DNA of 64,000 nucleotides, taken from a virus (taxonomy: Duplodnaviria > Heunggongvirae > Uroviricota > Caudoviricetes). Of this stretch, positions 43,964 through 45,546 are shown one piece after another (the first letter of the stretch is position 1; each line of letters begins with the position of its first letter). The notes under the pieces were generated by a model, which was not told the origin of the DNA, made no database searches, and saw only the letters and a program-made list of their open reading frames with translations. The position numbers were made by a program, and so were the translations under genes. The stretch is taken from positions 1 to 64,000 of the IMG/VR virus record IMGVR_UViG_3300035184_001394; one strand, written 5' to 3'.

Positions 43964-44368
43964 ATGAACTCAGAAGATATTTTTAAAGGGGTCGGTGTAG
44001 AGATAACTTTACCAACCGATGATAGTTTCTTAAAAATAAAGGAAACTCTAACTAGAATTGGTATATCAGCAAGAAAGGAAAAGAAATTATTTCAATCTTG
44101 TCATATACTTCATAAACAAGGTCGATATTCAATTCTTCATTTTAAAGAGTTGTTTGTATTAGACGGCAAAATTGATACATTCGCTACAGAAGATATGGCT
44201 CGTAGAAATACAATAGTCAATCTGCTAGATGAGTGGGAATTGCTTAAAATTGTTGATAAAGAACGAGCTTCAGCTCCCCGCGCATCACTAAATCAGGTTA
44301 AGATTATTTCTTATAAAGATAAAGCTGACTGGGAACTTTGTGTTAAATATAATATAGGTAAAAAATAG
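43964..44368 (+). CDS. regA: translational repressor RegA
   Basis: VEITLPTDDSFLKIKETLTRIGI...LFQSCHILHKQGRYSILHFKELF..DG parallels T4 RegA (IEITLKKPEDFLKVKETLTRMGI...LYQSCHILQKKGLYYIVHFKEML). Confidence 0.85.
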   Translation: MNSEDIFKGVGVEITLPTDDSFLKIKETLTRIGISARKEKKLFQSCHILHKQGRYSILHFKELFVLDGKIDTFATEDMARRNTIVNLLDEWELLKIVDKERASAPRASLNQVKIISYKDKADWELCVKYNIGKK

Positions 44369-44382
44369 GTGAGATGTTAATT

Positions 44383-44868
44383 ATGAATGAACTAAAGTTT
44401 TATAAAAATAAGGAATACGCGTATTCTCCTAAACTACATGAAGTGGATTCAATAGAGTTTGATATTCAAGCTGCATTTCAAATGGGCGATAAGATTAGAA
44501 CATACAATCCATGGAATAAAGAATGTTTAATACCAGTTAAAAATATTGGTGGAAAAGTTGGTTTTCAGTTACATCCAGAAAACCGTGCACAAGTACCGAC
44601 TGGTTTGATATTTGATATACCAGAAGGATACAGTCTAAAAATGTATATGAAACCCGAAGTTGCTCTTAAAAAAGGATTAGTCTTAGCGAATGGTACTACT
44701 ATTATAAGCTATGATCTTCATCGTAGACCAAATGATGAATTGTATATGGTATTATACAATGTTTCTGATAGCTTAGTTGTAGTAAACGAAGGCGAAATAC
44801 TTACAGCAATTTCCATGGAATTAGCCTGCGAATATTCTCTTTCAGAATCTGTTAAAGTACCAGTATAA
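44383..44868 (+). CDS. dUTPase-fold protein with divergent catalytic motifs
   Basis: QVPTGLIFDIPEGYSLKMYMKPEVALKKGLVLANG...LYNVSDSLVVVNEGEILTAI follows the trimeric dUTPase strand order. The RS and IDxDYxGE motifs are not conserved. Confidence 0.45.
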   Translation: MNELKFYKNKEYAYSPKLHEVDSIEFDIQAAFQMGDKIRTYNPWNKECLIPVKNIGGKVGFQLHPENRAQVPTGLIFDIPEGYSLKMYMKPEVALKKGLVLANGTTIISYDLHRRPNDELYMVLYNVSDSLVVVNEGEILTAISMELACEYSLSESVKVPV

Positions 44869-44907
44869 AAAAAGTTAAAAAAAGTTTTATACATCGAGTT
44901 TTTTGTG

Positions 44908-44915
44908 TATAAATA
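44908..44915 (+). promoter_or_regulatory. T4-type late promoter TATAAATA upstream of hsp20
   Basis: TATAAATA about 100 nt upstream of the ATG at 45014. Confidence 0.4.
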
Positions 44916-44990
44916 GAAATGTTAGCATGATGCCGAAAGGGTTTTGCTAACATAACAACAATGCTAGTTATAATTATAACAGCAAATTAA

Positions 44991-45008
44991 TCTTGCTCAA
45001 AGAGGAGA
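44991..45008 (+). promoter_or_regulatory. candidate ROSE-like RNA thermometer hairpin sequestering the hsp20 Shine-Dalgarno
   Basis: UCUUGCUC-AAA-GAGGAGA. UUGCU pairs with AGGAG leaving an internal G-G opposition. The ATG lies 6 nt downstream. Confidence 0.4.
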
Positions 45009-45013
45009 AAACA

Positions 45014-45481
45014 ATGAGAAATCTACAAGTTAACACTGATCACCTAAAACCATTCACCGTTGGATTTGATAACATACTAAATCGTTTATTTGAAAATGAA
45101 AATTGTGCAACACGAAGTACTGGGTTTCCACCCTACAACATCAGAAAGCGTTCAGACACAGAATTCCATATAGATCTAGCAGTAGCTGGCTTAGATATTA
45201 ATGATGTTGATATAGAAGTATCAGATGGTCAGTTAGTTGTGCGTTCAGCATTCGACGACAAAGCAAAAGTATTTAATGGTGAATTTATTCATCGCGGTAT
45301 TTCGTTTAAGAAATTTACGAGACCATTTACTCTTGCCGATGATATCGAAGTTACTGGTGCAAATTTGAAAAATGGATTGCTTACAATCGATTTAACTCGT
45401 ATAGTACCAGAAGAGAAAAAACCAAAGAAGATTACAATTGAATGTGGTTCGCCCAATGATAAACAGTTCTTGGCTGGTTGA
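45014..45481 (+). CDS. small heat-shock protein (Hsp20 / alpha-crystallin, IbpA-like)
   Basis: FPPYNIRK...FHIDLAVAGLDINDVDIEV.DGQLVVRS...FIHRGISFKKFTRPFTLADDIEV.GANLKNGLLTIDL. Confidence 0.85.
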   Translation: MRNLQVNTDHLKPFTVGFDNILNRLFENENCATRSTGFPPYNIRKRSDTEFHIDLAVAGLDINDVDIEVSDGQLVVRSAFDDKAKVFNGEFIHRGISFKKFTRPFTLADDIEVTGANLKNGLLTIDLTRIVPEEKKPKKITIECGSPNDKQFLAG

Positions 45482-45510: not shown

Positions 45511-45546
45511 AAGGAAACTCGATATTGAGTTTCCTTTTTAGTTTTT
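45511..45546 (+). terminator. rho-independent terminator
   Basis: AAGGAAACTC-GATATT-GAGTTTCCTT followed by TTTAGTTTTT. Confidence 0.7.

Follow-up and report, generated by a model that had tools for sequence, protein, structure and literature searches.

A probable ROSE-like RNA thermometer in the hsp20 leader of a marine T4-like phage

Does the leader of a phage small heat-shock gene respond to temperature? The question is raised by hsp20 in a 64,000-nucleotide (nt) stretch of viral DNA (IMG/VR record IMGVR_UViG_3300035184_001394, positions 1 to 64,000; hereafter the window). A sequence-only reading had noticed three possible hairpins between a T4-type late promoter motif and the hsp20 ATG, the third one pairing with the Shine-Dalgarno (SD) sequence, and had suggested a ROSE-like RNA thermometer that the phage had kept or acquired. 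Our analysis indicated that the leader is probably such an element, apparently taken over from a bacterium, probably a proteobacterium, along with an ibpA-type gene and still limiting translation at low temperature.

The leader comprises 93 nt (44921-45013), up to the ATG at 45014, and is held by a 145-nt intergenic gap between a dUTPase-like open reading frame (ORF; 44374-44868) and hsp20. The positions that had been proposed for the promoter motif, the three hairpins and the ATG were all exact, and the minimum-energy fold of 44916-45030 consisted of exactly the same three hairpins, which we designated H1, H2 and H3 (Table 1). This fold had an energy of −24.1 kcal/mol (z = −2.88), equalled by 3 of 200 shuffles. 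The identity of the gene, which encodes 155 amino acids, was also confirmed: the product matched Pfam PF00011 (HSP20) with an E-value of 4e-16 and belonged to PHROG 432, and its top NCBIfam match was IbpA (107 bits, under the equivalog cut-off of 212). The protein is IbpA-like.

Table 1. Coordinates of the features in the hsp20 region of the window
Feature	Position	Strand	Basis
T4-type late promoter motif TATAAATA	44908..44915	+	sequence; position kept in relatives
H1 hairpin	44921..44951	+	fold, covariation, model R2, shared ROSE_3 core
H2 hairpin, GCU[A]GUUAU-AAUU-AUAAC-AGC	44963..44983	+	folds; optional, window clade only
H3 hairpin, presumed sensor	44991..45008	+	fold, conservation, R2 match, motif uniqueness
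hsp20 coding sequence	45014..45481	+	Pfam, PHROG, NCBIfam, protein alignment (IbpA-like, phage and bacterial)
Intrinsic-terminator-like hairpin (11 pairs) and T run, 3' of hsp20	45511..45546	+	scan

H1 forms the extreme 5' end of the predicted mRNA. Its outer stem pairs GUUAGCA (44921-27) with UGCUAAC (44945-51), and its inner stem contains a U28xU44 mismatch, G29.U43, A30-U42, U31.G41, the bulged G44932, C33-G40 and C34-G39, closed by a GAAA tetraloop (44935-38). The conserved core (44925-44947) includes the stem, the bulged G44932, the CC/GG pairs and the tetraloop. In H3, the anti-SD arm UCUU[G]CUC pairs with the SD arm GAGGAGA (45002-08) across an AAA loop (44999-45001) through U91-A08, C92-G07, U93-A06, U94.G05, C96-G04, U97-A03 and C98-G02, leaving G44995 unpaired. 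The ROSE motif UUGCU (44993-97) thus lies opposite AGGAG (45003-07), as the sequence-only reading had claimed. The internal G-G opposition that it had also described was not found in the predicted fold, in which G44995 is a one-base bulge facing both G's of AGGAG with no formal G-G pair.

In bacteria, leaders of the ROSE type confine the translation of small heat-shock genes to warm conditions. ROSE-like elements are recognized by their location in the 5' untranslated region (5'UTR) of a small heat-shock gene, two to four hairpins, an SD imperfectly paired with U(U/C)GCU in the 3' hairpin and a bulged G (PMC3669281, PMC11182007), and the leader has all of these. The published definition further comprises an NMR-derived network of non-canonical pairs in the sensor helix and melting of the SD hairpin on heating, with translation depending on temperature. 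A search with the pattern U(U/C)GCU - 3-10 nt - NGGAG - 4-10 nt - AUG found a single match in the window, at hsp20 (0.27 expected from shuffles), and across the related loci (418 kb) the hsp20 start accounted for 58 of the 65 matches. A recurrent exception (L050:5073-5097; related loci are cited by L number) was located in coding DNA before a ligase-like gene and was rejected as a chance match. The anti-SD is UCUUGCUC, with no UUUU facing the SD as in fourU thermometers. Another candidate, an Rfam freshwater-2 match to the window (17 bits against a gathering score of 49.9), was also rejected, as it was due to the SD and AUG only.

We scanned viral contigs with three Hsp20 queries (window, Syn9 and HTVC008M), obtained 180 viral hsp20 loci whose upstream sequence covered 75 nt or more, and added eight cultured phages (Syn9, S-PM2, P-SSM2, P-TIM40, HTVC008M, Mosig, Melnitz and C48C1). 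An H1 core and an anti-SD:SD hairpin were present directly 5' of the hsp20 start codon in 180 of the 180 viral loci; the anti-SD was U(U/C)GCU in 151, UAGCU in 22 and CUGUCU in 7. The common plan of late-type promoter, H1, optional H2 and H3 included cyanophages as well as SAR11 and OM43 phages. All eight cultured phages followed it with two hairpins (no H2), at an Hsp20 identity to the window protein of only 28-43% (alignment) and with diverged inter-hairpin linkers. Cyanophages carried H1 with a UUCG loop and CUCGCUU...AAGGAG; SAR11 and OM43 phages carried CUUUGCUU or UCUUGCUU. Thirty-seven distinct window-clade leaders, folded one by one, nearly always gave the same architecture, with two or three hairpins in the relatives. 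H2 was restricted to the window clade and was absent from L022, L025, L051, L057 and every cultured relative. The pelagiphage-like contigs L188-L195 had ACUGUCU opposite AGGAGGU, with a G facing an A (or a shifted bulge) in place of the UUGCU/bulged-G geometry, and retained H1.

Compensatory changes were then analysed. A whole-leader MAFFT alignment with RNAalifold recovered H1 alone, with the SD region and H2 misaligned, and was replaced by register-anchored, N-padded segments. For H1 (72 distinct sequences, in register on the core), 89.7% of the cells were paired compared with 64.7% after shuffling, both sides had changed in 177 cells compared with 64, and the covariation score was 0.676 compared with 0.219, or 0.05-0.13 when the partner was slid by 1-3 columns. 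The outer stems of relatives read, for example, GUAGGAU/GUCUUAC, UGCAUAU/GUAUGCG, GAAGCAU/GUGUUUC, GGUGAUC/GAUCAC and UAUAGGU/GCCUAU. The H2 position likewise kept a hairpin with replaced stems (GAUGG/CCAUC, GAGGG/CCCUC, GAAGG/CCUUC, GUAGG/CCUAC and GGUG-UGC/GCC-ACC).

H3 behaved differently. Among 59 distinct sequences with a U(U/C/A)GCU motif (the CUGUCU variant was left out), the bulged G (column 8) was invariant in 59 of 59, the invariant columns being T6, G8, C9 and T10, and the anti-SD was invariant or changed on one side only. The five core pairs were invariant or showed C-G to U.G switches, the flanking pairs showed U-A to C-G double changes, one of them being the loop-closing C44998-G45002 that the window shares with its closest relative, where other clades have U-A. 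H3 covaries little because one of its strands is the ribosome-binding site, in which the SD is fixed; the case for H3 therefore rests on a conserved non-coding heptamer with an unpaired G. These data also bear on the simplest alternative, that three hairpins arose by chance in AT-rich intergenic DNA. The window alone would leave some room for it, at z = −2.9 and with a motif so short that 0.27 matches are expected per window; the 180/180 conservation, the covariation and the covariance-model matches described below refute it, and we regard its probability as negligible.

Next to the known ROSE families, the phage leaders showed reciprocal model matches. As controls, Rfam identified the Salmonella ibpA leader as ROSE_2 (94.9 bits, gathering score 65) and the ibpA leader in the unverified 'Pseudomonas phage Y7' record (L091) as ROSE_3 (69.2 bits, gathering score 43). 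ROSE_3 matched the leaders of Melnitz (34.1 bits, E 4.6e-4) and C48C1 (26.8 bits, E 0.033), since its hairpin I (consensus ugCGgGAU-G-CCG-AAgU-CGG-GUCcCGca) has a bulged-G, CC/GG core in common with phage H1; the consensus of its hairpin II is CUYGCU...AGGAG. Model R2, made from 17 window-clade leaders with H2 excised and the window excluded, was run with filters off over 83.5 kb. It matched the window at 44925-44954 (24.6 bits, E 3.8e-4) and 44963-45011 (E 5e-4), with the next best at E 4; E-values of this search tool are rough. R2 also matched Melnitz (E 4e-8), Syn9 (E 0.004) and, from end to end, the ROSE_3 element of Pseudomonas (22.4 bits, E 0.0014). Model R1, built mostly from near-identical cyanophage leaders, did not match the Pseudomonas element significantly (E 1.1). 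The likeness to ROSE that the sequence-only reading had noticed thus held up, with every feature from the literature that can be read in a sequence being present, and the 180/180 conservation, the H1 covariation and the ROSE_3 and R2 cross-matches raised it to probable homology.

R1 matched an H1-like hairpin before ibpB in the Salmonella ibpA-ibpB spacer (L089:1348-1382, E 0.018). This hairpin, AUGCUC-G-CC-GUCA-GG-GAGCAU, has the same stem, bulged G, CC/GG and tetraloop, and from its sequence ibp leaders may use the H1-type design repeatedly as a module.

A bacterial scan with one genome per species gave 47 Hsp20 relatives at 36-50% identity. Most of them had a ROSE motif upstream, often plus the same H1 core, and nine of these bacterial-bin leaders were matched by R2 at E < 0.002. 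A sigma-32-type promoter, CTTGAAA...CCCTATCT, preceded H1 both in a bin assigned to Burkholderiaceae (L237) and in the Pseudomonas record (L091). Because bacterial relatives carry the same leader behind sigma-32-type promoters, we infer that the phage kept the leader and exchanged the promoter. The 'kept, or acquired' of the sequence-only reading is best resolved as acquired together with the gene and then kept. A different arrangement was observed in SAR324 and related bins (L206, L209-L216, L251), where a ROSE motif, CCUUGCUU...AAGGAGG, stood before Hsp20 relatives and a longer upstream hairpin, CCACCUCCAAG...UUGGAGGU, contained an SD-like GGAGG of its own.

How the leader might work is suggested by its bacterial counterparts. 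The two-hairpin ROSE-like leaders of Pseudomonas are thermometers, as judged by reporter assays, toeprinting and structure probing; their hairpin II, which is sufficient for regulation, melts between 25 and 42 °C, and hairpin I remains closed and may stabilize the transcript (PMC3669281). Because of the homology to these leaders, we propose H3 as a temperature-dependent gate for the 30S subunit. Late transcription from TATAAATA would begin at the first base of H1. H1 would be stable, probably shielding the mRNA 5' end and aiding the folding of the weak sensor, as proposed for hairpin I of Pseudomonas ibpA, and H2 would be a clade-specific spacer hairpin. H3 would hide the SD in a short imperfect helix, UCUU[G]CUC:GAGGAGA, and so restrict 30S binding at low temperature; on warming, it would open gradually and allow more Hsp20 to be translated. 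The bacterial heat-shock promoter would have been exchanged for phage promoters. Occlusion of the SD in the cell, the response to temperature and its range are thus predictions of this model; nearest-neighbour folding was suggestive for the window and inconsistent among relatives. The hsp20 SD was the second most occluded among 23 SD-bearing genes of the window, with a predicted unpaired fraction of 0.11 at 5 °C, 0.28 at 37 °C and 0.42 at 50 °C. The nearest-neighbour energy of H3 in the window was −2.9 kcal/mol at 37 °C and −5.8 kcal/mol at 20 °C (clade consensus at 37 °C, −1.2 kcal/mol). On an imperfect energy model, the phage sensor at ocean temperatures would be about as stable as bacterial sensors are at 30-37 °C. 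'Melting points' of 62-79 °C, calculated for isolated H3 from ensemble energies, were discarded as meaningless for physiology.

Several observations weigh against a working thermometer of the ROSE type. The Rfam ROSE scan that the sequence-only reading had proposed did not bear it out: the models, which are narrow, gave no match to the window even at E ≤ 10, nor to 11 relatives at E ≤ 1, and the ROSE_3 scores of Melnitz and C48C1 are under the gathering score of 43. UAGCU, beyond the strict motif, is carried by 22 of the 79 window-clade members. The H1 register was picked partly by maximising pairs, so its percentage paired is somewhat inflated, and the covariation of H3 was weak (0.110 compared with 0.077 shuffled, and 0.129 in the control slid by +2). 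In full-length partition-function folds, the SD was mostly open at all temperatures in L007 (0.79), L030 (0.91) and L042 (0.98). The sensor hairpins of the Pseudomonas leader (L091; −7.7 kcal/mol at 37 °C) and Salmonella ibpA (−4.8 kcal/mol) are both far stronger than H3, so repression by H3 may be slight. The transcript start, finally, is deduced from the promoter motif. Two of these points have less force than they seem to have. Full-length accessibilities were given little weight, because relatives differ wildly. Failure of the window to reach an Rfam cut-off is weak evidence against membership, because the models also miss ROSE-looking bacterial ibpA-like leaders, which scored 29-34 bits with ROSE (cut-off 45) and 23-26 bits with ROSE_3 (cut-off 43).

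The weakness of H3 and the variation of its predicted occlusion among relatives would also suit an inherited ROSE-like structure that acts constitutively, with H1 stabilizing the late mRNA and H3 damping translation but with no meaningful switch at ocean temperatures. H1 is exactly at the predicted 5' end, 5' stem-loops stabilize mRNAs (PMC3669281), and gradual melting in silico is expected of any weak hairpin. A damper, however, could use any complement of the SD, whereas the anti-SD and the bulged G stayed near-invariant while Hsp20 diverged to about 30% identity, and the imperfect U(U/C)GCU/bulged-G geometry is tied to the heat sensitivity of ROSE (PMC11182007, PMC3669281). We consider a constitutive element unlikely, although it is the foremost of the alternatives.

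The conserved H1 core, with its bulged G and CC/GG pairs, would also suit a protein-binding site. By analogy with gamma-proteobacteria, in which IbpA represses itself via its own 5'UTR in a manner dependent on Arg93 (PMC10474464), the leader might mainly be an operator which Hsp20 binds to repress its own translation until titrated by unfolded proteins. Temperature would then be sensed indirectly, and such a function would be compatible with a thermometer, on which it could be superimposed. The phage proteins are IbpA-like, and self-repression is plausible for most relatives, in which the Arg is kept (Melnitz, Mosig, HTVC008M, Syn9, S-PM2, P-TIM40, L010 and L050). The window and much of its clade, however, have Lys in the Arg93 column (GISFKKF, K99), and Lys cannot substitute for Arg93 in Escherichia coli (PMC10474464). 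As the main function of the leader, self-repression therefore seems to us rather improbable, somewhat more so than constitutive damping.

A further alternative places the signal in the DNA. CTYGCTTAA would then be covered by an operator, such as a Pho box, or CTAACA (44947) and the TATAAT inside H2 (44969-74) would form a sigma-70-type promoter. A homologous sequence in S-PM2d, ATTCAAACTCGCTTAAATA, has been annotated as a putative Pho box; the S-PM2d fragment showed no PhoB binding, however, and low phosphate elicited no response from the gene (PMC10976474). In S-PM2, ATTCAAACTCGCTTAAATA (L086:541-580) corresponds to the loop of H3 together with its anti-SD arm, and H3 thus accounts for a conserved sequence 5' of hsp20 whose proposed Pho box failed in PhoB binding (PMC10976474). 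Cyanobacterial Pho boxes are PhoB-binding repeats of PyTTAAPyPy(T/A); the window has TTGCTCAAAG instead of a TTAA core, and no TTAA occurs in 44988-45002. The promoter-like sequence matches sigma-70 consensus at 10 of 12 positions (44947-44974; CTAACA - 16 nt - TATAAT) across the 3' arm of H1 and H2; if used, it would yield a transcript with H3 alone. Such matches were not above shuffles (3 found, 5.3 expected; no enrichment), and relatives do not retain the TATAAT of H2. The compensatory changes in H1 and H2 point to RNA structure, and bacteria with other regulators have the same leader. We therefore regard a DNA-level element as very improbable.

The thermometer reading depends on where transcription begins. 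A T4 late promoter motif occupies positions −13 to −6 relative to the transcript start. This rule puts the expected start at about 44921, where H1 begins. A TATAAATA-like motif was located 3-6 nt 5' of H1 in 174 of the 180 related loci; the motif in the window is thus at a conserved position, with T4-like gp44, gp62 and regA adjoining, and the start is predicted from it. Two terminator-like sites were found in the scan (0.3 expected from shuffles). With a promoter motif before it and one of these sites after it, hsp20 looks like a small transcription unit of its own, as judged from the sequence. Many relatives had, in addition, a near-consensus sigma-70-type promoter (TTGACA - 17 nt - TATAAT) immediately 5' of TATAAATA (L003, 2150-2205; L007, L014, L028, L032, L066, L068). 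In these, hsp20 transcription would be early and late, with H1 preceded by a few additional nucleotides in the early transcript. No such TTGACA/TATAAT match precedes the late TATAAATA of the window.

Among known systems, the leader is closest to the ROSE_3 element of Pseudomonas ibpA (RF02523; Krajewski et al. 2013, PMC3669281). Both are leaders of an IbpA-type gene, and both have an H1 core of stem, bulged G, CC(G)/(C)GG and small loop (GGAUGCCGAAGUCGGGUCC in ROSE_3, GAUGCCGAAAGGGUU in the window), a short linker and then a short 3' hairpin with imperfect pairing of U(U/C)GCU to AGGAG and with the AUG outside the helix. In the window, however, H1 is longer and H2 intervenes; the sensor is shorter and AU-rich (−2.9 compared with −7.7 kcal/mol at 37 °C) and has no lower G-C clamp flanking the SD/anti-SD core, although the upper clamp (C44998-G45002) is present; the promoter is a phage late promoter instead of a sigma-32 promoter; and no Rfam score is reached. 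Classical ROSE (RF00435, Rhizobiales hspA) and ROSE_2 (RF01832, enterobacterial ibpA) have three to four hairpins upstream of small heat-shock genes, the window has three, and in all of them the SD lies in the last hairpin, facing U(U/C)GCU and its bulged G. Neither of these two families shows detectable sequence or model similarity to the window; their upstream hairpins differ, and the classical sensor is longer. Cyanobacteria, the phylum that many of these phages infect, have hsp17-type thermometers on a small heat-shock gene (Synechocystis; cited in PMC3669281), which consist, as described there, of a single short hairpin without U(U/C)GCU or H1. The cyanophage leaders resemble the leaders of the bacterial ibpA-like genes found here. 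The phage promoter, the optional H2, the short AU-rich sensor and the UAGCU and CUGUCU variants are the phage leader's own variations.

Three phage RNA thermometers were counted in 2024: lambda cIII, SPbeta blyA and a fourU element on a gut-phage sigma-70 gene (PMC11182007). Like the element proposed here, they make translation initiation from a phage mRNA leader respond to temperature. They belong to other classes and genes, lambda cIII acting through alternative structures and the other two being fourU elements, and none of them is ROSE-like, on a chaperone gene or conserved family-wide. Full-text literature searches in which thermometers were combined with cyanophages, pelagiphages or T4-like phages gave no result, and we found no published ROSE-like element of a phage, nor any belonging to a chaperone gene of a phage. 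If our reading is true, the leader would be the fourth phage RNA thermometer, the first phage one of the ROSE class and the first that is widespread and environmentally relevant. It would mean that a regulatory RNA can accompany its gene into a virus even as the promoter is exchanged, and it would link ocean temperature concretely to phage gene expression. A conserved thermosensing leader would also give hsp20 its first regulatory handle.

The gene is among the 25 core genes of T4-like cyanophages (PMC3037559). More tentatively, and with somewhat less than even confidence, we suggest that a low-temperature-tuned ROSE-type thermometer could be a core regulatory trait across marine T4-like phages (Kyanoviridae and allies). 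It would have been captured with a bacterial, probably proteobacterial, ibpA-type gene, rewired to late (in places early) phage promoters and kept even in cyanophages, and it would match late chaperone synthesis to sea temperature. The AU-rich helix would be as stable at 10-20 °C as the compared enterobacterial and pseudomonad sensors are at 30-37 °C.

The locus itself is consistent with a marine T4-like phage. The gp44 and gp62 clamp-loader genes and regA are located 5' of hsp20, from which we regard the phage as T4-like. Its gp44 shares about 55% identity with the counterparts in Stenotrophomonas phage vB_SmaS-DLP_6, OM43 phage Melnitz and cyanophages, and its Hsp20 is at most 44% identical to any cultured phage protein; these identities indicate a member of an uncultured marine clade near Kyanoviridae. 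The region gave no blastn match to cultured phages. The translational repressor gene regA is just 5' of hsp20 both in S-PM2 (L086:7-993) and in the window (43964-45481), with the dUTPase-like ORF inserted between the two genes in the window, and the order gp44-gp62-regA-hsp20 appears syntenic. RegA, considered as a regulator of the leader for this position, was set aside because the leader also occurs beside ibpA-like genes in bacterial bins, in which no search for regA was made. In P-SSM2, about 450 nt 5' of hsp20 and just upstream of purL, a manA RNA motif (L087:1-121), truncated by the end of the locus, was matched with 95.2 bits against a gathering score of 55.2.

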